A stretch of DNA of 64,000 nt from positions 64,670 through 128,669 of the forward strand of contig JAWOFX010000088.1 of the NCBI GenBank assembly GCA_046497275.1, written 5' to 3'. Each line of letters begins with the position of its first letter. The first letter of the stretch is position 1. Shown one piece after another: positions 35,269-56,457 of this stretch. The notes under the pieces are model-generated. The model searched no databases. It was not told the DNA's origin and saw only the letters and a list, made by a program, of their open reading frames with translations. Source of the stretch: Promethearchaeia archaeon. Its GTDB lineage: Archaea; Asgardarchaeota; Lokiarchaeia; Sigyniarchaeales; SOKP01. The position numbers and the translations under genes were made by a program.

Positions 35269-37434
35269 TTATTTTAGTTTATTATTTTCATAGATCTCAT
35301 AAAACCAATCCACAATATATTGATAGAAAAATCTTTCTCGGAGAACGTCATAATGCGATTTTTCTCTAAGACTTGTAAGCTTTGCAATATCCTCTGATTT
35401 GATTTTCGATTGTTTAATTAAATTCATACGTGCTTTAAATTGATCGACCATATCTATCGGCCTTAGTATAATTGAAATCGCTTCTGAAATTGTATCAATT
35501 ATATCATTTAAGTTATCAATACCTAGTGATTTTTCTCGATTCGATTTTAATAAATAAGATTGAATTTTTTCTATGAGAGGATCTTTTCTTTCATAGTTAA
35601 TTAACTCTCTGTTTTTAATTAGATTGTCTAAAAACTTTATAATATCATTAATCACGACTATATCGATATTTAAATTCTCTAATTGTGTTTTCAACTTTAT
35701 TAGAAATTGTCTCTTTAGAAATTGTTTATATTTAATTATAATTGCCTCATTCTCTCTGATATCTGAGCAAACCTCAACTAATTCGCCTTTCGGTGTCGCA
35801 TAAGTGAATCCATGACCTTGCGGCCCTAAACCACCTAATAATACCATTGATAAGCTATGAAATTTATAAGAATCTGTTGATAATATCTCTTGTTCGTTAT
35901 CAAGAATATTCTTAGGGGAAACTAAATGCTTCTTAACTTCTCTCTCTTCTCGTTCTTGCAAAGTTCCATAATAATTTATACGATATCTATACAAAATATT
36001 AAATTCTAAAAAACCATCTTCCTTTAGCTCTTCTCTTCGGCTATTTTTATAATGTTTTTTAAATTCTTTGAGAAAATGTAGGGTTGACCCTAAATTCTTA
36101 ACACTCAATCCATAGATAGAGTATGCATTAAAGAAAGAATTTTTAATATAATAGATAAGTTGATCAATATTACTATAAAATGAATAAGCATTAGGATAAT
36201 TTACAAAATATTCATAAAGATTCCTTGGAAGAACTTTATATACAAAATAAATTAGAAAATCATTTACAGGACCAAAAAGATCTTTTAAATTGGCTAAAAA
36301 TAGTTTATCTTTCTTTATTTTTTTTATTTTTTTTAACTTTTGCTCATTAAGTTCTCTAGTTAATAAATTATATTTATTACAAAATCTTATGGTATCTATC
36401 ACTTTTCCTAGACTGGACGTTTGATATCCGACGGTCACATCTTGAATACAATTGATTATAAGTTGTGAAATAATTTTAAATCGATTTGGAATCTTTTCTA
36501 CTTCAATAAATATATCAAATTTATCCGAATTTTTAATTAGTTGCTTAAACTTATCAAAATGACCCGCTTCTAGATCTTTTGCTAATCCTTTGTAAAAATT
36601 TTCCTCAATTTTCTTTTTATTTTCTGCTTTTAAAAGAATCCGAGATAAATTAATCTCTCCCTCATCTTCAATTATATGATCTATTGTATATTTTATTTTC
36701 TGAAATTCTCCAGATTTTAGAGATTCTATTATTGTTTCAATAATTAATTCTTGAATATCGTTAGTATTTTTTTTTAATTTGTGATGAGAAATTTCATTTT
36801 TCTCTATAAATTTATAGAAGAAAATTAAGTATTTTAAATTTCCAATTCCTAAAAAATAATCAAATGAATCTCTGAATAATTTAGTCATAAAGGTTAAAAT
36901 TCTTTCCTTATTACTTCCCTTTTCAAATGATTTGTCTTCCTTATATTTCTCAATCCAATCTCTTAAATAAATTATAAAAAGAGGTAAATTATCTGTATTA
37001 TAAAAAATCTGAACATTTTTCTGACATCTTCTACAGAAATAAATCATTCTATTTTCATTGAATGCATAAGAACCCTCAGATATATCCTCTGAATGACATT
37101 CAGTACATAATTTTTCAAATAATAATTTTTCGATTAATTCTTCTAAAAATTCAATTTTAAGATTCTTGATAACTTCAAAATCAATAATCTCATTCTCTAT
37201 TAAAACCCAGAGATAAGATCCAAACTCTAAAAAAATAGGTTTGAAGAAACGAATTTTATCAGAATTATCTAACTTTTTATATTCTTGAGTTATATTATAG
37301 ATTTTCTCAGCGAGCTTTATTTCTTTAGTGGCGACTTTCTTTCTAATATCATTTAAATCCAGTTTGCCTTTTTTAATAATATTAAATATATCGTTTTTTA
37401 AATTGCCATAAAATTGCTCAGAGAGAATATGCAT
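35269..37434 (-). CDS. Hypothetical 721-aa helical protein with an internal zinc ribbon
   Basis: Long ORF 77 nt downstream of the Roadblock gene on the same strand. CTEC-x22-CRRC ribbon near aa 110-140. The rest is K/E/I/L-rich and predicted helical. No P-loop or other catalytic motif seen. Confidence 0.6.
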   Translation of the reverse strand: MHILSEQFYGNLKNDIFNIIKKGKLDLNDIRKKVATKEIKLAEKIYNITQEYKKLDNSDKIRFFKPIFLEFGSYLWVLIENEIIDFEVIKNLKIEFLEELIEKLLFEKLCTECHSEDISEGSYAFNENRMIYFCRRCQKNVQIFYNTDNLPLFIIYLRDWIEKYKEDKSFEKGSNKERILTFMTKLFRDSFDYFLGIGNLKYLIFFYKFIEKNEISHHKLKKNTNDIQELIIETIIESLKSGEFQKIKYTIDHIIEDEGEINLSRILLKAENKKKIEENFYKGLAKDLEAGHFDKFKQLIKNSDKFDIFIEVEKIPNRFKIISQLIINCIQDVTVGYQTSSLGKVIDTIRFCNKYNLLTRELNEQKLKKIKKIKKDKLFLANLKDLFGPVNDFLIYFVYKVLPRNLYEYFVNYPNAYSFYSNIDQLIYYIKNSFFNAYSIYGLSVKNLGSTLHFLKEFKKHYKNSRREELKEDGFLEFNILYRYRINYYGTLQEREEREVKKHLVSPKNILDNEQEILSTDSYKFHSLSMVLLGGLGPQGHGFTYATPKGELVEVCSDIRENEAIIIKYKQFLKRQFLIKLKTQLENLNIDIVVINDIIKFLDNLIKNRELINYERKDPLIEKIQSYLLKSNREKSLGIDNLNDIIDTISEAISIILRPIDMVDQFKARMNLIKQSKIKSEDIAKLTSLREKSHYDVLRERFFYQYIVDWFYEIYENNKLK

Positions 37435-37511
37435 AGCTCTACATTTTTATTAGAACAAGATAAGATTAATAAAATTATTTATAAAATAGTATAAGTGGTT
37501 TCAATTTAATT

Positions 37512-37883
37512 TTAATCTAATAACCCAGCAATCTTCTGTGAAACGCTCTGTATATTTAAGAAAACCATACCCAAACTCGATGCCTTCGACGCCAGAACAC
37601 AGAGTATCGCATTTTCGCCCGCACGAGAAAGTATTATAATTCCATCCAATCCCTCAATAAGAATTCTCTTTAAATCTCCTCTCGCTAACTCTTGAACAGC
37701 TCTCTCCGATACGCTAAGAATAGCAGCAGACATAGCACTAACAATACCATCATTCACATCTCCCGAAAGCGCAGAACAAATAGGTAACCCTTGGACAGAA
37801 ACAATCGCACTTCCTTGAATATCGGCATTGATTGCTTCCAAATTTCTCAGAATGTCTGTAAGCTCACTTATATTTTCTGACAT
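37512..37883 (-). CDS. Roadblock/LC7 (MglB-like) domain protein
   Basis: 123 aa. IQGSAIVSVQGLPICSAL ... IVSAMSAAILSVSERA ... IIILSRAGENAILCVLA fits the Robl/LC7 alpha-beta-alpha pattern. Confidence 0.8.
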   Translation of the reverse strand: MSENISELTDILRNLEAINADIQGSAIVSVQGLPICSALSGDVNDGIVSAMSAAILSVSERAVQELARGDLKRILIEGLDGIIILSRAGENAILCVLASKASSLGMVFLNIQSVSQKIAGLLD

Positions 37884-37906
37884 AATGGGGAAATAAGTAA
37901 TTAATA

Positions 37907-37952
37907 TATTGATTCTAATAAAGTAAGTAAAACAATATTAATATTGATTCTG
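37907..37952. repeat. Two exact 11-nt direct repeats (ATATTGATTCT) spaced 35 bp apart in a divergent promoter region
   Basis: Copies at 37907..37917 and 37942..37952, between the Roadblock gene (minus) and the MetAP gene (plus). Confidence 0.5.
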
Positions 37953-38241
37953 ACTAAATTCTTTTAAATTTTAATGTTTATGTATAGAATATTATTAATA
38001 ATAAATCTATATTAATTTTTTGCAAAAAACCATCAATGCATTTTTTAACGAATTTTAAATAATAATCCCCAAATTCTCTTTTTAAACAGATTGAAATACT
38101 TTTTTATAAAATGATAAATCCGCAAAATTATGTATGCATGAGTAATTCAAACTTTTTTTAGAAAAACTGATGGATTTAAAAAATATTATTATCCATTTTT
38201 CATTACCTAACCTAATGAATGAGACACGAAAAGAAAAAGAT

Positions 38242-39195
38242 ATGTCTGAAAAGAAAAATAATTCAGAGATTTCAGAGGAAAATGAAGAGGAGAAGCAATT
38301 AAAATTCGATTCTCTCAGAAAGGCTGGTGAAATAGCGCAAGAAGTAAAGAAATTCATCAAACCGAAGATTAAAATAGGTATGAAAGGATTAGATATAGTA
38401 TCTGCAGCGGAAAAGAAGATAAGTGAATTGGGAGGTGCTTGCGCATTTCCAGTTAATTTATCTATCAATAATATCGCTGCTCATTATACTTCTCCATTTC
38501 GTGAAGATGGATTAACTATAAAAGAAAATGATCTTGTGAAAATAGATTTGGGAGTGCATATTGAAGGATATATCGTTGATACAGCATTCACAGTAAATTT
38601 TAATCAAGATAAATCTCTAGAAAATATAATTACTGCCACTGACACGGCATTGCAAGCAGCAAAAATGATGGTGAAGCCAGGTGTGAACACAAAAGATATA
38701 GGAAAGAAGATAGAAAATATTGTTAGGGGGTTTAATTACAATCCAATTAAAGAATTGGGCGGTCATCAAATAGAACGCTGGAGACTTCACGGAACAAAGG
38801 ATCTCCCAGAATTAGGCTCTCAAGGTGGAGATGAAATAGAGGAAGGAGATGTGTTTGCTATTGAAATCTTTGCATCTACGGGAGCTGGATCGGTTCATAG
38901 TACAAATAGTTGCCATATATATGCGATTAATCCCTATACAGGGCGGGTTCCTTTAAGAAGAAAGAGCTCTAAGCAAATACTGGGATTTATAAATAGAAAT
39001 TATAAAACTCTTCCGTTTGCTGAACGCTGGCTTGGTCAAGAGTTTCAAATAGGGGTTGCTTTCGGAATACAAGAACTTGTCCAGAAAGATAAACTAAGAC
39101 AACATAATGTGCTTTCTGAAGAGAAAGACGCCTACGTTGCACAATCAGAAGAAACAATATTGATAACCGAAGATGGCTATGAACAATTAACATAG
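38242..39195 (+). CDS. map: Methionine aminopeptidase, type 2 (archaeal/eukaryal)
   Basis: AFPVNLSINNIAAHYTS, DLVKIDLGVHIEGYIVDTAFT, GHQIERW and FAIEIFASTG are metal-ligand motifs. I place the start at Met 38242, because the track ORF start (38170) adds 24 implausible residues. Confidence 0.85.
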   Translation: MSEKKNNSEISEENEEEKQLKFDSLRKAGEIAQEVKKFIKPKIKIGMKGLDIVSAAEKKISELGGACAFPVNLSINNIAAHYTSPFREDGLTIKENDLVKIDLGVHIEGYIVDTAFTVNFNQDKSLENIITATDTALQAAKMMVKPGVNTKDIGKKIENIVRGFNYNPIKELGGHQIERWRLHGTKDLPELGSQGGDEIEEGDVFAIEIFASTGAGSVHSTNSCHIYAINPYTGRVPLRRKSSKQILGFINRNYKTLPFAERWLGQEFQIGVAFGIQELVQKDKLRQHNVLSEEKDAYVAQSEETILITEDGYEQLT

Positions 39196-39249
39196 AATCA
39201 TAATTTATATTTTTGAACATCAAATTTAAAATAACTTCCTCTTCAAAAA

Positions 39250-40359
39250 ATGCGAAAATTAAGTATCTGCTTGGTTTCATTTAAAATTCCGCCCGATTCT
39301 CAAGACGGCACAGCAAAAACATTTAAAGGAATTTATAAATATCTCAAAAACCAAGGGCATAACGTGAAATTAATAACAGGAAAATGGAAATATGATTTAA
39401 AAGATCCAGACATAATACAAATTGATATAATTAATAAAAGATTTGTTTGGATCATCCCTTTTGCTCTCGGTGTTATAAAATATCTAAAATCCCATGATTT
39501 TGATATTATACATGGAAACAATCCTAAAGGAGTGCTACCTATTCTTTTAGCAAATAAAAAAAAATTCATCTCAATGATTCATGATTTAGGATATTTTACA
39601 AAAATTCCTTTTGAAAAATTTCTAATAAAGTATATAGCGAAGAATTCAACTTTTATCACAGTTCCTTCGACCCAAATAAAAAATAAATTGCTTAAGAATC
39701 TTAAAATCTTAAATCCCAATAAAATATTTAATTTATATAATGCCATAGAAGACAAATTTAAACCTTATCCCGAAAAAGCAGACAAACTTAAAGAACAATT
39801 AGGAATAAAAGGTCCAGTTTTAATTTATATAGGCCGTATTTCGTTTTATAAAGGAGTACATGATATTATTAAATCATATTATTTAGCTAAAGAAAAATTG
39901 AGAAATTTAAATCTCGTTATTGGAGGATTGCCTGATTTTAGGACACAAAAAAAATATGATTATTGGAAGAATAAATATAATGATATAAAATTTGTTGGAT
40001 TTATTCCCCCTGCTCAAATTCCTATATATTATTCAATGGGTGATATTTTCATAACTTATTCATATGCGTTTGAGGGGTTTGGATTGACCCCAATAGAAGC
40101 AATTGCTTGCGGAACACCAGTTATTTGTTCTTCCCTCCCAGTTTTTAAGGAAGTTTTGGGAGATAATGCAGTATTCTTACCACCCAGAAGTCCAAAATTA
40201 TTAGCAAAAGCCATTATTGCACTATTAGAGGATGATGAAAGAAGAAAGAAAATAATAGAAAACGCGCAAGAATTTATAAAACGTTATTCTTGGAATGCAG
40301 TAGGGAAAAAGCTTGAAAAAGTCTATATGCATTTCTTAAATTTAAAAACACATAATTAA
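39250..40359 (+). CDS. Glycosyltransferase, GT4 (GT-B fold) family
   Basis: C-terminal EGFGLTPIEAIACGTPVICS motif and an N-terminal Rossmann-like half. Confidence 0.75.
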   Translation: MRKLSICLVSFKIPPDSQDGTAKTFKGIYKYLKNQGHNVKLITGKWKYDLKDPDIIQIDIINKRFVWIIPFALGVIKYLKSHDFDIIHGNNPKGVLPILLANKKKFISMIHDLGYFTKIPFEKFLIKYIAKNSTFITVPSTQIKNKLLKNLKILNPNKIFNLYNAIEDKFKPYPEKADKLKEQLGIKGPVLIYIGRISFYKGVHDIIKSYYLAKEKLRNLNLVIGGLPDFRTQKKYDYWKNKYNDIKFVGFIPPAQIPIYYSMGDIFITYSYAFEGFGLTPIEAIACGTPVICSSLPVFKEVLGDNAVFLPPRSPKLLAKAIIALLEDDERRKKIIENAQEFIKRYSWNAVGKKLEKVYMHFLNLKTHN

Positions 40360-40396
40360 TAGATTTATATCTTAATATTTAAGAAATTTATATTTT

Positions 40397-41527
40397 TTAC
40401 TTGAACCATCTCGTTTGTCCGAGGGTAATGATTCGATATTTTTTTACACGATTATAATCATTCCAAAAACATCCATAACATTCTGGGATATTTTTTCTTG
40501 AATCAATTAATAAATTTCGAAAATTTTTGTATTTTGTTCCATTCCAAATCTCAGAAAATGAATTTTTATATATATTACCCATAATATATTTTTCATTTGT
40601 AAGATAACAACAAGGTAAAACTTTCCCTGTGGCTGTAATATAGGTTGAGATCCAAGGTGTTAAACATGGTGTTTCATTTTTTAGGGTTTTTCTGTGAAGT
40701 AGTTCCAATAATTTCTCTTTCCAATTGAATAAAAAATCTTTTTTCTGTTTTTCCATATTTGAAGTTATTATAGAATTTATTTTAGCTATGGTATTTTCTA
40801 TTTGTTCAGGACTAGGAACAATCCCTGAATCAACTCCAAAATCAAATACGGGTTCCAATCTAAAAGATTCTAATAATCCCCATTTTTTAAGATAATTATA
40901 CATCGGTTCATATTCATCTAAATTTTTCGCTTGTAGACAGCATAGTATACGTATCATAATTTTTTTTCTATCAATCTCTGAAAGCAATTTCTCAAAATTA
41001 TCAATACACTTATGAAATGTTGAGCTCTTAGTTATTTGTTCAAAAGATTCTGGGTTTGTTCCATGAAGTGAAAAAGTTAAAATAGATGGAGGATTCTCTA
41101 CTAATTTTGCAATATTCAGGGCATTCATAAGAGACATATTTGTTGGCATAGATGTTGTTATATGCTTTCGATTGCATAATGCTAAAAACTTATATATCTC
41201 AGTATTCATCAAAGGTTCACCTAAACCATTCAACGTGACATATAATGGGTGGATATTCTCAATTAAATTTTTGAATATCTTAAAAGAGATTACATTATTT
41301 AAATTTCTAATTTTTTTCAGATTATGTCTGTCGCACATAATACAATTAAAATTACATCTATCTGTAATTTCAATTTGAAGCCGAATTGGTCCATATTTAG
41401 ACGCCTTTGGAGTTCCCAATATTGAATAATAAAGAACACTGAATGCTTTCTTTATATTATATAAAGTTAGAAACTGATTATTTTTAAAAATTAGTAATAA
41501 ATCTTCCAGTCGCTTTTTTAATGACAT
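40397..41527 (-). CDS. Radical SAM protein with C-terminal SPASM-like cysteine cluster
   Basis: ITDRCNFNCIMC (Cx3Cx2C). C-terminal CLTPW..GKVLPCCYL..CYGCFW pattern. Confidence 0.7.
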   Translation of the reverse strand: MSLKKRLEDLLLIFKNNQFLTLYNIKKAFSVLYYSILGTPKASKYGPIRLQIEITDRCNFNCIMCDRHNLKKIRNLNNVISFKIFKNLIENIHPLYVTLNGLGEPLMNTEIYKFLALCNRKHITTSMPTNMSLMNALNIAKLVENPPSILTFSLHGTNPESFEQITKSSTFHKCIDNFEKLLSEIDRKKIMIRILCCLQAKNLDEYEPMYNYLKKWGLLESFRLEPVFDFGVDSGIVPSPEQIENTIAKINSIITSNMEKQKKDFLFNWKEKLLELLHRKTLKNETPCLTPWISTYITATGKVLPCCYLTNEKYIMGNIYKNSFSEIWNGTKYKNFRNLLIDSRKNIPECYGCFWNDYNRVKKYRIITLGQTRWFK

Positions 41528-41566
41528 TTCTGAGAATTGAAAAAATTAAAATTCTTTTAATATATT

Positions 41567-41779
41567 TTAACCCGCTGGAGAAAATATTAACGCAAAAATT
41601 CCAAGACGAGCTAATATTACTATAATTATAAGAGATGCAGCAAAAATTACCGTTGCTATTGGACTTATCTTGATACCAATTGAAGAATCTTCGAAAAATC
41701 TCATTAAACCAGCTCCACCCATCGGCATTGGAGCACTTCCCGATCTTCTTTTTTTCCTTCGCGATTGTCTTCTAGACAT
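41567..41779 (-). CDS. Preprotein translocase subunit Sec61-beta
   Basis: 70 aa. Basic N-terminus, GGAGLMRFFED, IKISPIATVIFAASLIIIVILARLG tail-anchor. Collinear with archaeal Sec61-beta. Confidence 0.75.
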   Translation of the reverse strand: MSRRQSRRKKRRSGSAPMPMGGAGLMRFFEDSSIGIKISPIATVIFAASLIIIVILARLGIFALIFSPAG

Positions 41780-41928
41780 CTTTTTTAAATCTATTATGTA
41801 TTATTATATTTAATATAAAGATTTTAACCTAAAAAACTATTTCTCAAAATTTAAACTCGCAAAAAATCCAAAAAGCAAGATTTTTTTAACTCATAAATTT
41901 AATTATCTTAAAAAAAATAAAAATACAA

Positions 41929-42225
41929 ATGCGGATTCGAGAATTTCAAGATTTAATACGTGATCTTTACTTCCATCAAGATTCTAAAAGAGGTTTTAAC
42001 AAATGTTTCTTATGGCTCGTTGAAGAAATTGGTGAATTAGCCAGTGTTTTAAAAGAGAAAGAGTTAAATATAGAATTTATTGGAGCAGAGATGGCAGATA
42101 TAATAGCTTGGATATTCACGTTAGCAAATTTGCTAAAAATAGATATCGAAACGGCTGTGATGAAAAAATATCCTAATAAATGTCCCAAATGTGGTTCTAA
42201 TCCATGTATATGTAATAAAAATTAA
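41929..42225 (+). CDS. MazG-like nucleotide pyrophosphohydrolase domain protein
   Basis: LVEEIGELA ... EMADIIAWIFTLAN (EExxE / ExxD type helices). C-terminal CPKCGSNPCIC. Confidence 0.65.
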   Translation: MRIREFQDLIRDLYFHQDSKRGFNKCFLWLVEEIGELASVLKEKELNIEFIGAEMADIIAWIFTLANLLKIDIETAVMKKYPNKCPKCGSNPCICNKN

Positions 42226-42330
42226 TAGTGAAGATTCTATTATTTTATTTTAAAGCGTGAAGAGAATAAACTTTAATAAATTTTTAAAATTGATTATATT
42301 AATTTTAGTTATTTAGGAAATGAAAAAAAA

Positions 42331-44178
42331 TTGCTAATGTTGAAAAAAAGAAAAATTTACTTGCTAACAACGATTTTCATATCAATCTTTATCATTAGTT
42401 CCTTTATTTCAATATTTGATTATAATACTTGCTATAATCGTTCAAATTATGAACTACCTAAGACAGCTTCAAGCATAGAAGGAGCTTCCGATATTATAAT
42501 CTCTAAAATTAATCGAACTATTGATATAAACGGATTTGGATTAACAAATTTTAAGGATTCTTTAACAATTAAAAATGAATATAATAATCCTGTCTCCTCA
42601 ATTTTGATAGGAATTCCATCTAATATTTATGATGATTTAATATATTATGAAGCAACTGGTATGGGGAAAAATAGTTTATTGGTGGAAGAGACTGATATCA
42701 TAATGGATAATAATAAAATGATGTTAGCAATATATTTTGATTCTCCACTGCTTCCTCAAGAATCTAAATCAATAATTCTCTCCCATTCTTATAAGGAACT
42801 TTTACAATACCAACCCTCAGGGGAAAATCAAAAGATTTCTTTTACTGGAATAGTTTATCCGCTTTTCCCTTATAAAGCAGAAGGATTAATAAAAACAATT
42901 GTTATTCTGCCAATTGGATCGACTATCATTAATTCCGATTTTTGGGGGGAGAATAACGATAATTTAATAATTTATGACCTTGAAGAATTAACCCAATCAT
43001 ATTTAGAACCATTTTTAGAAAACTTAGGGGAAGATAAAATAATTGAGTTATCATTCACCCATCCTTCCAAAACAAGATTGGAAATACAAAAATCCACAAG
43101 GGAAATAACAATTTCCCCGTGGGGAGTGATTAAAGTGAAAGAGAGTATTTTAATTAGGAATCTCGGCTCTATAGATCTTGGAAAATTTAACTTAAAAATA
43201 CCAAAAGGGGCTCGCAATGCGAAAACAACCGATCATTTAGGGGAAATTGATGGAACTACTGTGACAGATTTACCGAATAATCCCAAATCCAAACAAATTA
43301 ATCTGGATCTTACAAATAATAGGGTGACAATGAATCCAGACTCGAGTTTCAGATTTACATTAACATATCAATTAAATCTGGCAGATTATGTATCTTATAA
43401 CTGGTTCAAACAATCAATACAAATGGATATAATAACAACACGCTGTGATTTTTTAGTAAGAGATCAAATTACAAAAATCATCATAGAAAGCTCTCTTAGC
43501 ATAACTGATATTTCTAATCTTCCAAATGAATTTGATGAATCGGTTGCATCTAGCATTCTCGTCTATGAATCAGATTACATTAGCAATATTGAAGAGAATA
43601 AAATTTTATTGACTTATACTCTAGATATTTTTGAAATGTTCCTCAGACCGCTAATAATTTTATTATTAATTGCATCACTGTGTTCGGGGTTTATCCTTTT
43701 TATTAAGAAAAGAAAGCAAATGGGCATTTTACCTATGATTGAAAAAGAAGAGATTCCTATAAAAGAGATCAGAGAGTTTTGTTCACTCTATGAGCAAAAA
43801 AATGCCCTTACATTAGAAATTCGAGAAGCAGAAGAGGAACTTAAGCGACGTAAATTAACTAAAAAACAATATCGTAATCTTGTTGATAAAAATGAATCAA
43901 AACTAAAGGATATTGATGAGGAAATAAAACCTTTTAAGAAAGAATTGATGGAAACAAATCAAACTTTTGAAAGCATGATAAAAAAACTAGATGTTTTAGA
44001 AGCGGAACGGCAAACGGTCGAGGATGGATTAAAATTATTGGAAAGCAGATATAAAAAAGGGAAACTTCCTTCAAGATCAGCTTATGTAAAATTAACCAAT
44101 GATTTTTTAAATAGACGAAAAAAGATTGACAGAACAATATCTCGTTTTATACAACAATTACGTTCTTATCTCCTTTAA
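42331..44178 (+). CDS. Ribophorin I / OST1-like protein (oligosaccharyltransferase accessory subunit homolog)
   Basis: Signal-anchor, INRTIDING near the N-terminus, and TREITISPWGVIKVKESILIRNLG. The last aligns by eye with human RPN1 [24 protein letters not shown]. A single late TM and a cytoplasmic coiled-coil tail reproduce the ribophorin I architecture. The start could be TTG 42331 or ATG 42337. Confidence 0.65.
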   Translation: MLMLKKRKIYLLTTIFISIFIISSFISIFDYNTCYNRSNYELPKTASSIEGASDIIISKINRTIDINGFGLTNFKDSLTIKNEYNNPVSSILIGIPSNIYDDLIYYEATGMGKNSLLVEETDIIMDNNKMMLAIYFDSPLLPQESKSIILSHSYKELLQYQPSGENQKISFTGIVYPLFPYKAEGLIKTIVILPIGSTIINSDFWGENNDNLIIYDLEELTQSYLEPFLENLGEDKIIELSFTHPSKTRLEIQKSTREITISPWGVIKVKESILIRNLGSIDLGKFNLKIPKGARNAKTTDHLGEIDGTTVTDLPNNPKSKQINLDLTNNRVTMNPDSSFRFTLTYQLNLADYVSYNWFKQSIQMDIITTRCDFLVRDQITKIIIESSLSITDISNLPNEFDESVASSILVYESDYISNIEENKILLTYTLDIFEMFLRPLIILLLIASLCSGFILFIKKRKQMGILPMIEKEEIPIKEIREFCSLYEQKNALTLEIREAEEELKRRKLTKKQYRNLVDKNESKLKDIDEEIKPFKKELMETNQTFESMIKKLDVLEAERQTVEDGLKLLESRYKKGKLPSRSAYVKLTNDFLNRRKKIDRTISRFIQQLRSYLL

Positions 44179-44230
44179 ATTTTTATATTCAGATGGATTA
44201 GCTAATAATAGACCTTATTTATGATAAAAA

Positions 44231-44857
44231 ATGAGACTCTGGTTATTTGATATCCTTGCATGTCCGATATGCAAGCATTATCCACTTAAGTTATACATCT
44301 TTTCGTATCAAGCAGAAGAAGATAAATTCAAAAAATATCTTAAAGATTACAATGAGAATACTTTTAATTATGAAAATCAGGATATTTTAAAAATATCTCA
44401 AGATAGTGAAGAAAAAATTTTGATTAAGGATGAAATTGTAATTGAGAAAAAACCTATAATTAAATATCTTGAAGATATTCTCACTAGTGTTGAAGAATTA
44501 AAAAATATCGAAGATCTGAGTTCTTACGAAAAAAGCAAGAAATGCCTTTCCATTGCAAGAGAAAAGATTTTTGAGCAATTAATTGAATTCTCCAAAAAAT
44601 CAGACTTAGATCACATTGAATCTATAATACCTGAACTTATTTTTCTGAATAAATTAAAAATTGACGCAGAAATTGAATCTGGTATTTTATTCTGCAATGA
44701 ATGCAATAGATGGTTTCCCATTATCGATACAATTCCTCGGATGTTACCAGATGAGTATAGAGACAAAGCAAAGGAACTCGATTTCTTAAAAAGCAAAAAG
44801 GATATATTAAATGAAGAATTTTTTAATTTGGATCTAAAACCTTTTAATCTACAATAA
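44231..44857 (+). CDS. Trm112-like zinc-knuckle protein with ~130-aa internal insertion
   Basis: N-terminal LFDILACPICKHYPLKL and C-terminal GILFCNECNRWFPIIDTIPRMLPDE are the two halves of the Trm112 fold. They are separated by an acidic helical insert. Confidence 0.6.
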   Translation: MRLWLFDILACPICKHYPLKLYIFSYQAEEDKFKKYLKDYNENTFNYENQDILKISQDSEEKILIKDEIVIEKKPIIKYLEDILTSVEELKNIEDLSSYEKSKKCLSIAREKIFEQLIEFSKKSDLDHIESIIPELIFLNKLKIDAEIESGILFCNECNRWFPIIDTIPRMLPDEYRDKAKELDFLKSKKDILNEEFFNLDLKPFNLQ

Positions 44858-44864
44858 ATTGTAG

Positions 44865-44871
44865 TTAAATA
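44865..44871 (+). promoter_or_regulatory. TATA-like box upstream of tRNA-Gln
   Basis: TTAAATA is centred ~26 nt upstream of tRNA position 1, the usual archaeal TATA spacing. Confidence 0.3.
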
Positions 44872-44893
44872 CCATTATTACTAATTATACAAA

Positions 44894-44996
44894 AGCCCGG
44901 TGGTGTAGCGGCCAAGCATCTGGGGCCTTGAAGATGCTTTAATTCCTAAGGCTTTAGGGACACCCCGTGACCACGGTTCGAATCCGTGCCGGGCTA
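44894..44996 (+). tRNA. tRNA-Gln (anticodon UUG) with a 30-nt intron
   Basis: Acceptor AGCCCGG/CCGGGCU with the A1:U72 pair typical of archaeal tRNA-Gln. D arm GUGU/GCAU, anticodon stem UGGGG/CCCCG, loop CCUUGA-A, T arm CACGG-UUCGAAU-CCGUG, discriminator A, no encoded CCA. It is the only GC-rich island in its intergenic region. Confidence 0.85.
44932..44961 (+). other. tRNA intron at the canonical 37/38 position
   Basis: 30 nt separate the anticodon-loop 5' part (CCUUGA) from A38 and the 3' stem CCCCG. The boundary is ambiguous by 1 nt because of the repeated A. Confidence 0.7.
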
Positions 44997-45168
44997 TCTA
45001 TATTTTCTTTACTGAAGTTTTTCTTATAAAAGTCTTATTCTTGAGTTATGGAAATTTATTTATTAAAACCATTTCGATAAATTGAAAAAAAAATAATAAT
45101 TATGAAAACAAAAAGCAGAATTTAATTATAAAAAAATAATATTTATCACAATTAAAAAGCAGAATTTT

Positions 45169-46263
45169 ATGAGTCTTTCTGGAAAAAAAATTTGGGTTGA
45201 TATAGAACAACCGAAGGCAGCAATAATGCTTTATTCTCTCATAAAGCAGTTTGAGTATGATGAGATTGATTTACTTATAACTGCTCGAGATTATGATTCC
45301 ACATACCAAATCCTGGATGATCATGAGATAAAATATATTAAAGTTGGAAAGCATGGCGGTGCCAACTTAGAAAATAAATTAAAAGCACATATTGATCGAT
45401 TAAGTGATTTATTTCCTCATGTTATTCGATTCAATCCGGATTATTTTGTAAACTTTATGTCTGTAGAGGGTATCCGAATAGCTTATGGATTAAAAATACC
45501 CTCTATAGGCTTCAATGATGAGCCGAGAAATGTACCTGTATGTAAATTAATTTTCCCTTTCATTGATAATGTAATTACTCCAGAGTGTATTCCTAAAGAG
45601 GCATATGTTGAACTATATGCCGATCCAAAGAAGATAATAAGATATAAAGGGATTGATGAGATTGCTTGGCTTTCAGATTTCAAACCAAATCCAAAAATTT
45701 TAGAGGATTATGATTTAAAAAAAGGAGAATATGTAATAATGCGAAGTGAACCATCTGCAGCCTGTTATTTTATAGATAAGTTGAAACCAGATGAAACTTT
45801 ATTAAGTGAAATCTTCCCGCCAATACATAAAAAATTCCCTAATCACAAATATTTTCTCTTAGCAAGAAATAGGAATCAGGAGGATTATTTACACAATAAA
45901 TTAAAAAAATACAAGGATAATCCAAATTTAGTCATAACTCGTTATTTACCACATTTAGATGATTTTTGTTTTTATAGTGGGCTAGTTATTAGTGGAGGAG
46001 GAACAATAGTTAGAGAGTCCAGTTTGCTGAGCGTTCCAAGTATAGAATTCTTTCCCGGACCAACAGCTCCACAAGAAATGTTTTTAAAAAATAATGGCTT
46101 TCCTTTAGAACATATCGAAGAATTAGATAGAATTATAAAAAGATCCATTTATGTTCTTAAAGAGGGTTTTGATACTACGAGAATCAAAAATTTTAAAAAC
46201 AGAGTTAAGCAATTTGAAAATCCTATAAAAATTTGTTATAATTATGTTAGAATAAATATTTAA
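45169..46263 (+). CDS. DUF354 family protein (GT-B-like, putative glycosyltransferase)
   Basis: KIWVDIEQPKAAIMLYSLI..LLITARDYDSTYQIL..VGKHGGANLENKL N-terminus and ISGGGTIVRESSLLSVPSIEF in the C-terminal half. 364 aa, typical of archaeal DUF354. Confidence 0.6.
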   Translation: MSLSGKKIWVDIEQPKAAIMLYSLIKQFEYDEIDLLITARDYDSTYQILDDHEIKYIKVGKHGGANLENKLKAHIDRLSDLFPHVIRFNPDYFVNFMSVEGIRIAYGLKIPSIGFNDEPRNVPVCKLIFPFIDNVITPECIPKEAYVELYADPKKIIRYKGIDEIAWLSDFKPNPKILEDYDLKKGEYVIMRSEPSAACYFIDKLKPDETLLSEIFPPIHKKFPNHKYFLLARNRNQEDYLHNKLKKYKDNPNLVITRYLPHLDDFCFYSGLVISGGGTIVRESSLLSVPSIEFFPGPTAPQEMFLKNNGFPLEHIEELDRIIKRSIYVLKEGFDTTRIKNFKNRVKQFENPIKICYNYVRINI

Positions 46264-46286
46264 TTAAAAAATTCAAATCTATAAAA

Positions 46287-47651
46287 ATGGAATCTCCAAC
46301 AGACATTCAATGGGACTTTTTTAGCATCCTTTTTCTCTTATTTTCAGCGACTATAGGATTTATCATAACATATTTAATTATGCCACATTTAATCAGATAC
46401 ATGAAAAAGAAAGGTTTTATGGGAATTGATATCCATAAAAATTCCAAACCAGAAGTTGCTGAATCCGGAGGGTTGGGGATGCTAATAGGATTCATTGCAT
46501 CATCAACTTTTTTATATCTCGTTTTTCCTCTGTATAGAAATATCATTTTAATTGTCCAAATGACACTTATTATTGCAGGGGTTATTGGATTTATTGACGA
46601 TAGAATTAGATTGAGAACCCGCTATAAATTATTATTAACTCTTAGTCTTGGAATTATAATTTTCCTCTCTAACTATTTAGAATTTATAAATATTAAAAAT
46701 CCAGTGCTTCCAATTTTAAGCCAGTTAAGACTTAATTTAATTTATCCAATTTTAATTCCTTTAGTGGTAACAGTATTCGCAAATACTGTTAATATGTTAG
46801 AGGGATATAATGGAGAAGGATCTGGTACAAGTATCATCTCTATTGCTTTTCTATTAATATGCAGTTTAATTTGGAATACAATGGAAGGTTTAATGTTTTC
46901 TCTGATTTCTCTTTCGGTTATAATACCATTTTATTTTTTCAATAAGTATCCGGCAAAAGTCTTTCCAGGTGATGTTGGAACACTCTCTATGGGTGTTATG
47001 ATAGCAAGTATCGCTCTTTTTGGTGGCTTACTGCCTGCGGCATTCTGTACACTTTTAACTCATGTATTTAACAGTTTTTATTATATATCTTCTGTAAGAG
47101 GGTTTTTTGAGAGTGAGAAAATTCATGAATTAAGAGATGATATTATCTTACTTGGAGATGATAAAATTAAGCCCTCGGAGGAAAAAGAAGCTCTTCTCAC
47201 CATGCCACGTCTTATTTTAGTCAAAGGTCCTTTAACTGAATCTAAATTGGTTAAAAATCTCTTCCTAATATCACTTATTAGCGGTTTTTTAGGAATTATA
47301 ACCACTTTTCTTATGTGTTGGACTATAGGAGAAATCAATATCCTTTATCTTCTAACCTTTTCCATACCATGTTTTATTATGATTGGATTATTAGTATTTT
47401 TCTTTCCAAGAATTAGAGATATTGCTCTTCAGATGATAATATTATATTTTATCGGAATTATAATATTGTATCTTATAGATTTTCTAATAGTTCCAATTCA
47501 AATAACTGTAGATTTATATTTTATTAAAATACCCGTAAATATTTTACTTTCAATACTTATAATTATTCCAGGATTAATTTTATGGTACATAATAACTATT
47601 TTTTACGTGAATAGGAAATTAACTTTAAATAATAAATCAATTCAAAAATAA
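46287..47651 (+). CDS. UDP-GlcNAc:dolichyl-phosphate GlcNAc-1-phosphate transferase (Alg7/AglH, MraY-WecA superfamily)
   Basis: Polytopic membrane protein with IGFIDDRIRL, NTVNMLEGYNGEGSG (compare the Alg7 NxxNxxAGxNGLE motif) and VFPGDVGTLSMG. Confidence 0.75.
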   Translation: MESPTDIQWDFFSILFLLFSATIGFIITYLIMPHLIRYMKKKGFMGIDIHKNSKPEVAESGGLGMLIGFIASSTFLYLVFPLYRNIILIVQMTLIIAGVIGFIDDRIRLRTRYKLLLTLSLGIIIFLSNYLEFINIKNPVLPILSQLRLNLIYPILIPLVVTVFANTVNMLEGYNGEGSGTSIISIAFLLICSLIWNTMEGLMFSLISLSVIIPFYFFNKYPAKVFPGDVGTLSMGVMIASIALFGGLLPAAFCTLLTHVFNSFYYISSVRGFFESEKIHELRDDIILLGDDKIKPSEEKEALLTMPRLILVKGPLTESKLVKNLFLISLISGFLGIITTFLMCWTIGEINILYLLTFSIPCFIMIGLLVFFFPRIRDIALQMIILYFIGIIILYLIDFLIVPIQITVDLYFIKIPVNILLSILIIIPGLILWYIITIFYVNRKLTLNNKSIQK

Positions 47652-47815
47652 AAGGGATTTATATCAAAGGATATAGAAATCTATTAATTGCTACAAAATA
47701 GGAGATTCATCTGAAAACGAAGTTTCGAATCATCACTTTTATTTCTTATTTATTTATATCGCTAATTCTATTTTTTTTCTTTATTTTATTTTATTCCGTT
47801 GATCTTTTTAACATC

Positions 47816-50185
47816 TTGACAGATTGGTCTTTTTTTATTACCATTGTTTTCTATATAATAAGCTTAGAAGAGTTCTATGTGTATGTAAAGAATGGTCAGA
47901 GAAGTGAACTTTCTGATATTGTTGCGATTATTTTTTTCTTCTTTTTAATCTATTTTTTAACGAAAGATCTTCTGACCTCTTTAATGGGTTCTTTTTCCAT
48001 TTATCTTTGGGTTGGAGTTGCTGAATTAAAGGAATATCCTGTAATAAACAAGATTTTGGTAATTTCTTTAGTGACTTACAATATAATTTTCGTTTCTGGA
48101 TTAATTTCAAAATTTTTAAATAATCCTATTGTTTTAAATACTTCTTTTTCCTTTTCCTTTTGGATAATTTTGATTTTAGGATTTATTTTATTCGGACGAA
48201 AATATATTGTCGTTTGGAGATTTATGAGTCCCCAATATCTAACGCTTTTTCTCTATATTCTCGGCTGGATTGGTGTAGTATTCATAAATCAATATACTCC
48301 CATCGATTTTCTTCAATATATTTATATTATTCTAATTCTCATGAATGTATTGATTTATTTCTTTTCTGGATTTTTATTGGATAAACTTCTGGGTATTAAG
48401 AGAATAAATAATGAAAAAATTAATTCCATCGTTAATGAAGTAAAAAAAAATATTGGAATTAATAGTAATGTTAAAATAGGGCTTGGAAAATATCCCATTG
48501 TGAACGCAATGGCCTACGGGCCTTTTTTAGACAAGAGGATTGCGATTATTGCTGAAGATCTTGAAAAAATTCCAGAAGATGAGATAAAGGGAATTATTGC
48601 TCATGAATTAGCCCATACCAAAGCTAATCATACTTTAATATTAGGGTTTATAACTATATTCGATTTAATTATAAGAGGAATTATTGGATTTCCAGCAACT
48701 TATTACGATTACACATTTGGTAATCCTCAAATCCCATTCATCTTTTTTCTCGTGATTAATTTTGGAGTCTATATATTTTTATATTTTTTCGTAAGAATTT
48801 TAGAAGGTTTTGCAGATAGGATTGCTAAGAATTCAGGTTATGGGCAAGAACTTGTAAAAGCTCTCTATAATTTAGAGAGTTTTTATGCTTCAGGCAGAGA
48901 AATTGGATTAAATACTATGCTATTATGCGAAGAAAAAATCTCCAGAGAAAATAAGATATTAGATTATATGGAAACGGCTCAATATCTCAATAATTCAATT
49001 ATAAAACCGTCTAAAATCTCTCTTCTTGGGAATTTCCTTAACTCGCATCCCCCGACTTATCATAGAGTTATAGCAATTTTAAGCGATGAGATAAGTCCTT
49101 ATAAAGAAACCTTGTTACCTCTAATGCATCTAAGATCTAAAAATCAGAAAAAATTTGCTCAACAATATAATAAAACAAGAAAAAAATTCAAAGAAATCAC
49201 AAATCAAAAATTCAAAGAGATGTTTAATATCGAAGATATATCTAAATTTCTTAGTACTTTGGAACTTAGAGAAAAACACAAACATGAACTTTTCAAAAAT
49301 TATCTATTCAAAAATCTTATTACAGGAAAATATATCTATGGGCAAGTAAGAGATATTAAGTTTGAAAATGATATCAATAATTTCTTCTATGAAATTTTCA
49401 ATCACGAAACAATGATAATTGAAAATTTAAACTCTTCGCACTATACGAAAAAAGAAGTTAATGTCGGTGATCATTATATTTTTTCAAAAAAAAAATTATT
49501 GAAGCTAAAAAGGATTCAATTTGATGAGGACTATAATAATGGATTTTATTATTTCTCAGATAAATATAATCTTGAAATTAAAAAGGCTATTAAAAAAACC
49601 AAAATACCGTTCTCGGTAGAAAATCTCCAAAATTTTGTCGGTAATGAAGTATTTTTTAAAAAAAGAGGAGTATTAGAAATAGCCCACTGCACCTCTCTTT
49701 ATGAAAAAGAAGAAAAATTAGAGGAATATGTGATAAAATTAAAAAACTCTTTTCATGATATTGAAGGATATGAAACTACGGCTTTAAAATTAAAAGAATT
49801 ACTTATTAAACCTAAAAATATTCAATTTGAAATTAAGAAAAATGAACAAAATAAGGATGATACCAGAAAAATTTTAAACTGGATATTGAAAAATCAAATT
49901 AGAACGTATTTTTATTTGAAAAAACCTGTAAATAACTTAGAAATTGGTTATCTTCAAAATATTTTTCATAATTCAGAACAAGAAAAACAAATGAAAAAAT
50001 TTCCATTATTTATAGAAATAAGAACAATTTTTAACGAATTTAAAAAAATAAATTTGGAAATAATTGAATTTGTAAGCTTTGCATTCAATACTGGAATTAT
50101 TCAACTGAAATCTGAAATAAGCCTCTTTTCAAAAATTGGATATCATCTCTTAAAAAAAATAAAACCACAAAAGATCTATATATAG
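47816..50185 (+). CDS. M48-family (HtpX/Ste24-like) zinc metalloprotease with long N-terminal membrane domain and ~380-aa C-terminal extension
   Basis: HELAH (IIAHELAHTKANH) lies after about six TM helices, with two further TMs and a downstream Glu region. The Lys-rich C-terminal half has no recognisable motif. TTG start in the track. Confidence 0.65.
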   Translation: MTDWSFFITIVFYIISLEEFYVYVKNGQRSELSDIVAIIFFFFLIYFLTKDLLTSLMGSFSIYLWVGVAELKEYPVINKILVISLVTYNIIFVSGLISKFLNNPIVLNTSFSFSFWIILILGFILFGRKYIVVWRFMSPQYLTLFLYILGWIGVVFINQYTPIDFLQYIYIILILMNVLIYFFSGFLLDKLLGIKRINNEKINSIVNEVKKNIGINSNVKIGLGKYPIVNAMAYGPFLDKRIAIIAEDLEKIPEDEIKGIIAHELAHTKANHTLILGFITIFDLIIRGIIGFPATYYDYTFGNPQIPFIFFLVINFGVYIFLYFFVRILEGFADRIAKNSGYGQELVKALYNLESFYASGREIGLNTMLLCEEKISRENKILDYMETAQYLNNSIIKPSKISLLGNFLNSHPPTYHRVIAILSDEISPYKETLLPLMHLRSKNQKKFAQQYNKTRKKFKEITNQKFKEMFNIEDISKFLSTLELREKHKHELFKNYLFKNLITGKYIYGQVRDIKFENDINNFFYEIFNHETMIIENLNSSHYTKKEVNVGDHYIFSKKKLLKLKRIQFDEDYNNGFYYFSDKYNLEIKKAIKKTKIPFSVENLQNFVGNEVFFKKRGVLEIAHCTSLYEKEEKLEEYVIKLKNSFHDIEGYETTALKLKELLIKPKNIQFEIKKNEQNKDDTRKILNWILKNQIRTYFYLKKPVNNLEIGYLQNIFHNSEQEKQMKKFPLFIEIRTIFNEFKKINLEIIEFVSFAFNTGIIQLKSEISLFSKIGYHLLKKIKPQKIYI

Positions 50186-50224
50186 CAATAAAATTTAATT
50201 TCAATAGTTTTTTTTAAAAGTTAC

Positions 50225-51178
50225 ATGTTAGAACGGATACACCATTTAATAAATCTCATAAGAGTAAGACAATATTACAAAAACGTTTTAGTCTTTGTTG
50301 GATTGTTCTTTAGTGTTAATTTATTTACTGTTGAATATTGGTATCCGTTAATTATTGGATTTATTTTACTCTGTCTAACCTCCTCCGTCAATTATATTGT
50401 AAATGATATAGTAGATATTGAAAGTGATAAGAAACATCCTGATAAGTTAAAAAAAAAACCTCTCGCATCCGGAGATTTATCTATTTCTTTTGCGGTTGGT
50501 TTATTGATATTAATCGTTTTTATAATTATAATTAGTTTATTATTTATTGTTCCAAATATCCCTTTCGCTATTTTATTACTTTTAATAATTTTTACCGGTC
50601 AACTTTATAATCATTTTTTTAAAAGATATGCTTTTATTGATATTTTATCTCTATCAACAGGATATTTATGGAGAGCCTTGGCTGGCTGCGTATTGATTAA
50701 TCAATTTATTTCCGCATGGTTATTTCTTTCCATATTTGAACTTGCTCTTTTTTTAGTAATTTCAAAAAGAAAAGGAGATCTTATGATATTGGGGAGTAAA
50801 GAAGATGCGGTAAAACATAAAAAGGTGTATAATCAATATTCGATAAAATTGTTAGATCAATTTCACGTAATAACTGCTGGCTCTATTTTTATGACTTATA
50901 GCCTTTATTTAATTTTCAAGTTCGAATTATTTACTGAGGGTGAGTTTAATCCAAATGAATATATAACAATCCTTACAATTCCAATTATTCTTTTTATATT
51001 AATGCGTTATATGTATCTTACATCAGCAAAACCCGAGCTAGCAAGAAACATTGAGAAAGCACTTTTTGATAAAGGTATCTTAATAGCAGGAATATTTTTA
51101 GGAGCAATTTTATTATATTCATTTTATTTTGAACAAATTATAGAAATTCTAAACCTTATTTTTAATTTAAATCTTTAA
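50225..51178 (+). CDS. UbiA-family prenyl-phosphate transferase, decaprenyl-phosphate phosphoribosyltransferase (DPPR synthase)-like
   Basis: NYIVNDIVDIESDKKHPDKLKKKPLASGDLS (NDxxDxxxD followed by HPxK..P.ASG) and about eight TM helices. Confidence 0.65.
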   Translation: MLERIHHLINLIRVRQYYKNVLVFVGLFFSVNLFTVEYWYPLIIGFILLCLTSSVNYIVNDIVDIESDKKHPDKLKKKPLASGDLSISFAVGLLILIVFIIIISLLFIVPNIPFAILLLLIIFTGQLYNHFFKRYAFIDILSLSTGYLWRALAGCVLINQFISAWLFLSIFELALFLVISKRKGDLMILGSKEDAVKHKKVYNQYSIKLLDQFHVITAGSIFMTYSLYLIFKFELFTEGEFNPNEYITILTIPIILFILMRYMYLTSAKPELARNIEKALFDKGILIAGIFLGAILLYSFYFEQIIEILNLIFNLNL

Positions 51179-55755: not shown

Positions 55756-56457
55756 ATGAATTTCCCAACTCCTAAACTTAAAAATATTTTTCAGAAAAAA
55801 TTTCCAATAGATGGAATTCTTTCAATTTGGGGTGATTTCGGGGTTGGAAAAACAACTTTAGCATTACAAATATCCATTTTATCAATAGAGAAACGAAAGA
55901 AAGTGATATATTTTTATACAAAACCTAATTTTCCCTATAAAAAATTATTCACTCTCGCTGAGGATAATTTTTCTCAAGATATATCTCCATTTCATTCTCT
56001 CTTTGATCTTATAACAATCAAAGATTTTTCTCAATTATACTCCATTATTTTAAATTTAGAATATCTATTTTTGACAGAAAAAAATTATAATTTAAAAACT
56101 TATCTTATTGTAATTGATTCTTTAACAGATTTATATAAATCTGAACTGAATTTCAACAATGTTGATCAAAATGTGCGTTTAAATTATCAATTAAATCAAA
56201 TCTTAGCAACATTAAAATATTTAAAACACAAATATGATTTGGATTTATTGATTATTAATGAAACAAGTAGAACAAATCAAATCGGTGAAATTAAAGAAAC
56301 TCAAAGTGGTGGAAAAGTGATGGAGTATTGGATTACTGATTCTATTAAAATAGAAAGAACAAATGTTTTAAATAAACGAAAATTTAAAATCAACCGTTTT
56401 GATAAGAATAAAAACTATGAAATAATTTTAAAAATTAATGAAACAGGATTCGAATGA
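55756..56457 (+). CDS. RadB/KaiC-like RecA-superfamily ATPase
   Basis: Walker A GDFGVGKTTLALQI and Walker B YLIVIDSLTDLY. 233 aa with no N-terminal HhH domain. Confidence 0.6.
   Translation: MNFPTPKLKNIFQKKFPIDGILSIWGDFGVGKTTLALQISILSIEKRKKVIYFYTKPNFPYKKLFTLAEDNFSQDISPFHSLFDLITIKDFSQLYSIILNLEYLFLTEKNYNLKTYLIVIDSLTDLYKSELNFNNVDQNVRLNYQLNQILATLKYLKHKYDLDLLIINETSRTNQIGEIKETQSGGKVMEYWITDSIKIERTNVLNKRKFKINRFDKNKNYEIILKINETGFE

Follow-up and report, generated by a model that had tools for sequence, protein, structure and literature searches.

Does an archaeon of the Asgard group encode a true relative of ribophorin I, and in which process would such a protein take part? The question is raised by an open reading frame (ORF) located in a stretch of 64,000 nucleotides from contig JAWOFX010000088.1 of a Promethearchaeia archaeon (assembly GCA_046497275.1; Asgardarchaeota, Lokiarchaeia). 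This whole 64-kb stretch is called the window in the following, and all coordinates refer to it. A first-pass annotation, made from the letters of the DNA and the translated ORFs, had described the ORF at 42331-44178 as a ribophorin I (Ost1)-like eukaryotic signature protein. Pfam, hmmsearch, hhalign and Foldseek agree with this description. With a probability of about 85%, the gene encodes an Asgard orthologue of Ost1/ribophorin I (RPN1), a non-catalytic subunit of the eukaryotic oligosaccharyltransferase (OST), which adds sugars to newly made proteins.

Evidence for an Asgard orthologue of ribophorin I

The ORF runs uninterrupted over 42331..44178 (+) and comprises 615 amino acids (aa) when read from a TTG codon. 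This TTG opens the maximal ORF; the start is likely the in-frame ATG at 42337, because the same start is used in an identical NCBI record and the resulting N-terminus MLKKRK fits the 'MxxKKK' N-terminus of 50 homologues. The gene then spans 42337..44178 (+) and encodes 613 aa, an assignment supported by the ORF itself, the NCBI identity, the Pfam family PF04597 and Foldseek. The 613-aa protein is 100% identical to the NCBI entry 'hypothetical protein ACQERB_01580' (Promethearchaeati archaeon); the label 'hypothetical' is explained by the lack of an NCBIfam model for the Ost1 family. The GC content of the gene (0.297, compared to 0.298 in the window) and its GC3 value (0.231) both fit the neighbouring genes, and the gene is therefore regarded as native. 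A scan for promoters and terminators around Ost1 returned 23 sites, with 22.4 expected in shuffled sequence; it was based on a sigma-70 model, which is not applicable to Archaea.

As the first-pass annotation had proposed, the protein was searched against the Ribophorin_I profile (PF04597). The match reaches an E value of 2.9e-18 and 66.6 bits compared to a gathering cutoff of 25, and its best stretch places residues 56-285 on profile positions 2-234. PF04597 is also precomputed for the identical protein of the NCBI database. A profile built from 50 homologues finds human RPN1 (6s7o_E) among all PDB sequences with E = 3.8e-10 (hmmsearch), covering chain residues 88-458 including the transmembrane (TM) helix. 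In addition, an hhalign alignment of the family with human RPN1 (probability 96.1%, E = 3.4e-9) comprises 340 columns; it starts at residue 84 and extends into the TM helix. For this comparison the human residues 31-173 and 459-607 were verified against the PDB chain, and residues 88-458 were taken from the hmmsearch alignment.

The same relationship is found at the level of the predicted fold. An AlphaFold2 (AF2) model of the protein, built on a 50-sequence alignment, has a mean pLDDT of 83.5 and a pTM of 0.63. Its eight best Foldseek matches in the PDB are all RPN1 or Ost1, with E values from about 1e-34 to 9e-23. The best one is human OST-A in the ribosome-bound Sec61-TRAP-OST-A translocon (8b6l_O, E = 1.4e-34, 614 columns). 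Further matches are the human RPN1 chains 6s7o_E, 8pn9_E and 6s7t_E (TMt 0.72) as well as the yeast Ost1 chains 8agb_E, 7oci_A, 6ezn_A and 6c26_1 at E ~1e-24. The first fold other than RPN1/Ost1 appears in the list at E = 5.7e-8. The ectodomain and the TM helix superpose on the solved Ost1/RPN1 chains with TMt values of 0.66-0.72, and the identity to human RPN1 in the structural alignments is 14-16%. With 340 hhalign and 614 Foldseek columns, the similarity reaches far beyond a short motif.

Two motifs common to the archaeal protein and human RPN1 had been named in the first-pass annotation, and they fared differently. TREITISPWGVIKVKESILIRNLG is paired with the 24-residue human segment given there by hmmsearch and hhalign alike, exactly as proposed; 10 of the 24 positions are identical by hand count. 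The other pairing, of INRTIDI (residues 58-64 of the archaeal protein) with VKRTVDL (residues 36-42 of human RPN1), found no independent support. Both significant RPN1 alignments start past INRTIDI (at residue 84 and profile position 104, respectively), the pairing requires an indel of two residues, and a profile of residues 44-135 alone retrieved no RPN1 match from the PDB at E <= 10. The sole point consistent with it is the start of the Pfam match, where residue 56 falls on profile position 2. The correspondence of INRTIDI to VKRTVDL is thus plausible and unproven.

Could a generic beta-sandwich surface protein with a helical tail have come to resemble ribophorin I by chance or by convergence? 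An identity of only 14-16% to human RPN1 in structural alignments, an INRTIDI motif without significance of its own and a tail without sequence similarity to the human one would fit such an origin. It is made extremely improbable by three independent profile methods, all of them significant (Pfam 2.9e-18, hmmsearch 3.8e-10, hhalign 96%), and by the Foldseek search across the whole PDB, in which RPN1 and Ost1 occupy the first eight places about 15 orders of magnitude in E ahead of the next fold. Furthermore, the order of the domains, the position of the TM helix and the length (613 aa compared to 607 aa in human RPN1) coincide. Contamination with eukaryotic DNA or a recent horizontal gene transfer out of a eukaryote, for which nothing speaks except the eukaryotic flavour of the family, deserves just as little credence. 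The GC and GC3 values are those of the adjoining genes, the nearest homologues are all archaeal, and the archaeal genes which flank Ost1 belong to a block kept across 80 related loci, nearly all of them from Asgard metagenome-assembled genomes (MAGs). These 80 loci (L004-L083) from species-representative genomes form the comparison set of this study; they were fetched with patterns derived from the C-terminal tail motif of the family, so that the set is biased toward close relatives. Asgard names (Promethearchaeota, Hod-, Hermod-, Thor- and Odinarchaeota) or 'uncultured archaeon' are the labels of 79 of the 80 loci. Together with the identical protein in an NCBI 'Promethearchaeati archaeon' MAG, this bears out the lineage assignment for which the first-pass annotation had cited the gene. 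Chance similarity and contamination are both excluded.

Predicted topology and domains

Exactly two hydrophobic segments, residues 6-31 and 427-459, were found in a Kyte-Doolittle scan. According to the AF2 model, the protein has a type I topology with an N-terminal export signal, an extracytoplasmic domain and one TM helix near the C-terminal third. The layout given by the first-pass annotation is thereby retained for the signal sequence, the large ectodomain and the single TM helix. The coiled-coil tail was not retained: Pfam coiled-coil matches (DUF3450, crescentin and others) stay far below their thresholds, and a four-helix bundle is predicted instead.

The N-terminal signal sequence (residues 1-31; 42337..42429, +) consists of KKRK and a subsequent hydrophobic helix of 21 residues, as seen by hydropathy and AF2, and is the least constrained region with 27% identity. 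The model shows a helix at residues 2-23 followed by a disordered linker (residues 24-44). A signal anchor had been proposed here; the hydrophobic helix is indeed present, and it may be a cleavable signal peptide instead of an anchor. This possibility is suggested by results from HeLa cells, which recognise the signal peptide of the orthologue from Candidatus Prometheoarchaeum syntrophicum MK-D1 and cleave it off (PMC11417166).

The ectodomain of about 380 aa is modelled exclusively with beta-strands between residues 53 and 429 and comprises two extracellular beta-sandwich domains. Domain 1 (residues 48-245; 42478..43071, +) is defined by the Pfam match to residues 56-285, the AF2 strands 53-242 and hhalign. 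Domain 2 (residues 246-429; 43072..43623, +) carries the motif TREITISPWGVIKVKE at its start and is supported by hmmsearch, hhalign, the AF2 strands 248-429 and the superposition on 6s7t_E (TMt 0.72). The TM helix (residues 430-461; 43624..43719, +) is followed by the stop-transfer sequence KKRK. It is indicated by hydropathy, by the alignment to the TM helix of human RPN1 and by the AF2 model, in which a single helix at 431-461 holds LRPLIILLLIASLCSGFILFI; R437 and P438 within it are invariant alignment columns. The cytoplasmic four-helix bundle (residues 474-613; 43756..44175, +) forms the C-terminus, and the model of this tail of about 150 aa has helices at residues 475-503, 509-540, 542-573 and 580-610. 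It is supported by a match to 8whn_A, by Foldseek and by its conservation.

The cytoplasmic tail

The tail matches the PDB entry 8whn_A by sequence with E = 2e-33, and the tail model superposes on 8WHN with a TMt of 0.89, a root mean square deviation of 2.0 Å and 44% identity (Foldseek). The entry 8WHN shows the cytoplasmic domain of MK-D1 OST1, crystallised and solved at 1.95 Å; in pull-downs, human ribosomes were bound by this domain and not by the ectodomain of MK-D1 OST1 (PMC11417166). The tail is better conserved than any other part of the protein: identity among distant homologues amounts to 64% there, to 41-43% in the beta domains and to 27% in the signal region. The tail also carries a net basic charge, with 34 lysines and arginines versus 25 aspartates and glutamates. 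It is the homologue of the ribosome-binding domain of MK-D1 OST1, and its high conservation and basic charge are consistent with ribosome binding.

A phmmer search with the tail alone yielded 254 clusters (50% identity level) at E <= 1e-3. Throughout these clusters the tail domain lies at the very C-terminal end, and the proteins are about 560-650 aa long; shorter matches resemble contig fragments. The Ribophorin_I threshold is passed by five of seven distant tail matches inspected. Some distant matches of about 605-614 aa could have been eukaryotic RPN1; they were inspected and seem to be archaeal, and a protein from Bathyarchaeota belongs to one of the clusters. Likewise, an apparent pattern 'GKL...Y...KID' common to archaeal and human tails was discarded since it failed the hhalign test. 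Homology between the archaeal tail and that of human RPN1 is a matter of fold and position, as judged from the model.

Comparison with known Ost1 proteins

The closest characterised relative is MK-D1 OST1 (WP_147663064.1; Carilo et al., J Biol Chem 2024, PMC11417166). It has the same architecture and a nearly equal length, with constructs reaching to residue 607. Its tail aligns end to end with that of the window protein, and both contain the motif RYK(R/K)GKLPS in their last helices. The window copy comes from a different organism, a Promethearchaeati MAG with about 30% GC, and is known from its sequence alone. Typical Asgard-labelled homologues share about 44-48% identity with it over the full length. 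Concerning MK-D1, two papers from 2024 are in conflict: Ost1 was described as absent in one of them (PMC11284389), whereas in the other WP_147663064.1 was expressed and its tail crystallised as 8WHN (PMC11417166).

Human RPN1, known from OST-A and OST-B (6S7O, 6S7T, 8B6L), has the same type I topology with two lumenal beta-sandwiches, one TM helix and a cytosolic four-helix bundle, and is of similar length (607 aa versus 613 aa). It differs by its low sequence identity of 14-16% and by a tail without detectable sequence similarity. Since internal membranes are lacking in MK-D1 (PMC11417166), the cell membrane is the expected location of the archaeal protein. Yeast Ost1 (6EZN, 6C26, 7OCI, 8AGB) shares the fold of the ectodomain and the TM helix (TMt 0.66-0.70, E ~1e-24). 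The deposited yeast chain comprises 476 aa and the alignments end at about 450 columns, short of the tail; therefore the Asgard protein resembles the long RPN1-type form.

Ost1-like proteins are also found in TACK archaea (PMC11417166), and most of them carry PF04597. They have the same length and the same C-terminal tail, e.g. HDI01309.1 of Bathyarchaeota, with the motif RYRRGEISKGAY in place of RYKKGKLPSRSAY in the window protein. Their tails are richer in arginine and share 23-30% identity with the window tail. Judged by these sequences and by the Bathyarchaeota protein in a distant cluster, the Ost1 family is not strictly Asgard-specific. The statement of the first-pass annotation that ribophorin I has been listed among the Asgard eukaryotic signature proteins is correct (PMC10307638). 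Asgard Ost1 was reported in 2017; Eme et al. 2023 (PMC10307638) cite the earlier report as their reference 3. The window protein is an ordinary member of this already described family, and the finding as such is already known.

A probable subunit of an oligosaccharyltransferase, or a ribosome receptor

The function proposed for the window protein follows the mammalian OST-A translocon. At the cell membrane, the ectodomain and the TM helix of Ost1 would dock onto the catalytic subunit AglB/STT3, whose gene would lie elsewhere in the genome. On the cytoplasmic side, the bundle would bind the large ribosomal subunit beside the Sec61 channel and tether the translating ribosome, and N-glycosylation would thereby be coupled to co-translational translocation. 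The conserved neighbourhood of the gene fits a role in N-glycosylation and in the maturation of proteins during translation: the block holds Sec61beta, an Alg7-like transferase and glycosyltransferases, together with a methionine aminopeptidase and a membrane protease of the M48 family. A multi-subunit OST, as suggested in the first-pass annotation, may be present in this archaeon. For MK-D1, aglB and Ost3/6 have been reported from other parts of the genome (PMC11284389, PMC11417166).

Several points weigh against this reading. A Pfam search of essentially all ORFs of at least 110 aa revealed no AglB/STT3, Ost3/6 or other OST subunit in the 64-kb window, and a WWDYG-like motif is absent from all six frames of it. 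The association of Asgard Ost1 with AglB rests on AlphaFold models (PMC11417166), and ribosome binding was shown for the MK-D1 tail only, with human and not with Asgard ribosomes (PMC11417166). In the glycoproteome of MK-D1, high glycosylation was found for a single protein, and none of the glycan traits was clearly like those of eukaryotes (PMC11284389). Finally, a profile of the Asgard family showed no sequence similarity to the human RPN1 tail (residues 459-607; hhalign probability 0.4%, E = 0.16).

Alternatively, the main task of a true Ost1 homologue in Asgard archaea could be to receive ribosomes or to assist the Sec61 translocon, independently of AglB and not as an OST subunit, so that the recruitment to OST would be a later eukaryotic innovation. 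The much stronger constraint on the tail than on the ectodomain (64% versus 41-43% identity) would be in line with this, as would the constant gene partners, which are Sec61beta (72 of 74 loci) and a Trm112-family gene (74 of 74), AglB being missing from both the window and the block. The glycosylation genes of MK-D1, reported as not clustered near aglB, and its one highly glycosylated protein (PMC11284389) point in the same direction. However, the full two-domain Ost1 fold with its TM helix is kept across Asgard archaea and Bathyarchaeota, which is unexpected for a simple membrane anchor. An Alg7-like GlcNAc-1-phosphate transferase and glycosyltransferases lie in the same block, and published AlphaFold models put MK-D1 OST1 in an OST-like assembly (PMC11417166). 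A role confined to the translocon is therefore considered unlikely, and the protein is preferably read as the Asgard orthologue of the OST subunit.

The conserved gene block around Ost1

Ost1 is part of a block of 12 genes (35269..51178 of the window) which is kept across most of the 80 Asgard loci. The dominant order is p721 (-), Robl (-), MetAP (+), GT4 (+), DUF354 (-), MazG (-), Sec61b (-), Ost1 (+), Trm112 (+), Alg7-like (+), M48 (+) and UbiA (+). In 72 of 74 loci, Sec61beta lies on the opposite strand less than 1 kb upstream of Ost1. Downstream of Ost1, the Alg7-like gene is present in 51 of 54 loci and the M48 protease gene in 53 of 54. The block thus brings together genes of the translocon, of OST, of lipid-linked oligosaccharides and of co-translational maturation.

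In the window, the block starts with p721 (35269..37434, -), encoding a protein of 721 aa that is present in 31 related loci and has no Pfam match at E <= 0.001, followed by a Roadblock/LC7 gene (37512..37883, -) identified by Pfam. The type II methionine aminopeptidase (38170..39195, +) matches TIGR00501 with 288.8 bits compared to a cutoff of 222.65 and occurs in 65 of the 80 loci. The adjacent GT4 (group 1) glycosyltransferase (39250..40359, +; PF00534, 126 bits) is found at a conserved position in 66 of them. A radical SAM/SPASM gene (40397..41527, -; PF04055, PF13186) is a lineage-specific insertion, present in just one of the 80 loci (L004). It is followed by Sec61beta (41567..41779, -; PF03911, 43.9 bits) and by a MazG-like gene (41929..42225, +; PF03819) between Sec61beta and Ost1.

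Downstream of Ost1 and its Trm112 partner, a DUF354 gene (45169..46263, +; PF04007, 132 bits) adjoins the Alg7/AglH-like GlcNAc-1-phosphate transferase (46287..47651, +; PF00953). The best PDB match of the latter is human DPAGT1 (2e-13), ahead of MraY (3e-7). The block is completed by a large membrane M48 metalloprotease of the HtpX/Ste24 type (789 aa; 47816..50185, +; PF01435 and weak NCBIfam HtpX matches) and a UbiA-family polyprenyl-phosphate transferase (50225..51178, +; PF01040; 58 of the 80 loci), which resembles decaprenyl-phosphate phosphoribosyltransferase at a score under the curated cutoff. The M48 protease is a multi-pass protein with an unannotated C-terminal extension of about 350 aa, and a PDB sequence search with it gave no match.

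The gene order around Ost1 in the window is rearranged relative to most relatives. DUF354 is found upstream on the minus strand in 64 loci; the window and its closest relative L004, whose Ost1 is 65% identical, have it downstream on the plus strand. MazG is on the minus strand in 68 loci and on the plus strand here and in three loci including L004 and L005. The three-part rearrangement, with radical SAM between GT4 and Sec61beta and both MazG and DUF354 on the plus strand, is common to the window and L004 only.

The DUF354 gene is a candidate for the enzyme of the second step in chitobiose-core synthesis, because it is located next to the Alg7/DPAGT1-like gene and most Asgard genomes lack Alg13/14 homologues, as reported in the study on Agl24. 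DUF354 is not mentioned in the Agl24 paper, and the protein had no PDB sequence match which would mark it as Agl24 or Alg13/14-like.

Two observations concern the comparison set itself. The locus L068 (DATKTW010000090.1), labelled 'Candidatus Nanopelagicaceae bacterium', contains a full Asgard-type Ost1 locus with 43% identity over residues 1-613 and is probably a mis-binned contig in a bacterial MAG. Furthermore, two separate Ost1 loci occur within one MAG in two cases, L029/L037 (isolate bin60) and L040/L050 (isolate DZ3M.111); these pairs are either true paralogues or the result of mixed-strain bins.

The long Trm112 partner

The gene directly downstream of Ost1 encodes a long Trm112-family protein of about 207 aa (44231..44857, +; PF03966). 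It occupies this position in 74 of 74 loci, typically with a gap of 23-24 bp between the Ost1 stop and the Trm112 start, and is probably co-transcribed with Ost1. The Trm112 zinc-knuckle is matched by residues 1-21 and 139-177, split by an insertion of about 120 residues which forms a helical domain, an arrangement also known from eukaryotic Trm112. Homologues of this long form number 507, and every named one belongs to an Asgard-labelled MAG.

The AF2 model of the long Trm112 (pLDDT 92.6, pTM 0.88) finds eukaryotic Trm112/TRMT112 in all of its 18 best PDB matches, over about 180 columns with probabilities of 0.84-1.00 and TMt values up to 0.66. Short archaeal Trm112 proteins align to it over 27-31 columns only. 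On the basis of its model the long Trm112 looks eukaryote-type, and it may be unreported in Asgard archaea; the literature library searched holds no paper pairing Trm112 with Asgard. The 312-bp gap after Trm112 was searched for small Ost4/Ost5-like membrane ORFs, and none of the candidates was credible.

Other features of the window

Pfam gave no match at E <= 0.001 for three long ORFs at 6086..7690 (+), 12458..13939 (+) and 29610..31115 (+), which encode 534, 493 and 501 aa. Further Asgard- or eukaryote-like genes are located at 27452..28303 (+), 55756..56457 (+) and 60438..61253 (+); they encode a CAAX protease similar to Rce1 and two members of the RadA/Rad51 family, of which one is weak or divergent. 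Neither tRNA genes nor Rfam matches at the gathering thresholds were found in the whole 64-kb window.

Implications

Ost1/ribophorin I is a translocon-linked eukaryotic signature protein which has been used to argue for an Asgard-like ancestry of the Sec61/OST/TRAP machinery of the endoplasmic reticulum. The window protein adds no new principle to this: the family has been on record since 2017, and both a crystal structure and ribosome binding of its tail were published in 2024. Its practical value is that the Asgard origin of the window is confirmed and that the block around it provides a well-conserved genomic marker. The synteny of this block is mentioned neither by Eme et al. 2023 (PMC10307638) nor in the 2024 paper in J Biol Chem (PMC11417166), and the conserved arrangement of 12 genes around Sec61beta and Ost1 may be a new observation. 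A bolder and rather doubtful proposal is that the genes of the block act together as a module in which proteins are matured during translation at the Asgard membrane. The 207-aa Trm112 could then be an unrecognised signature protein of the eukaryotic type and might cooperate, physically or functionally, with the ribosome-binding tail of Ost1. If true, this would link the methylation of ribosomes or translation factors to the translocon. The arrangement of Sec61beta, Ost1 and Trm112 and the long Trm112 itself bear on the question of a pre-eukaryotic coupling of translation, translocation and glycosylation.

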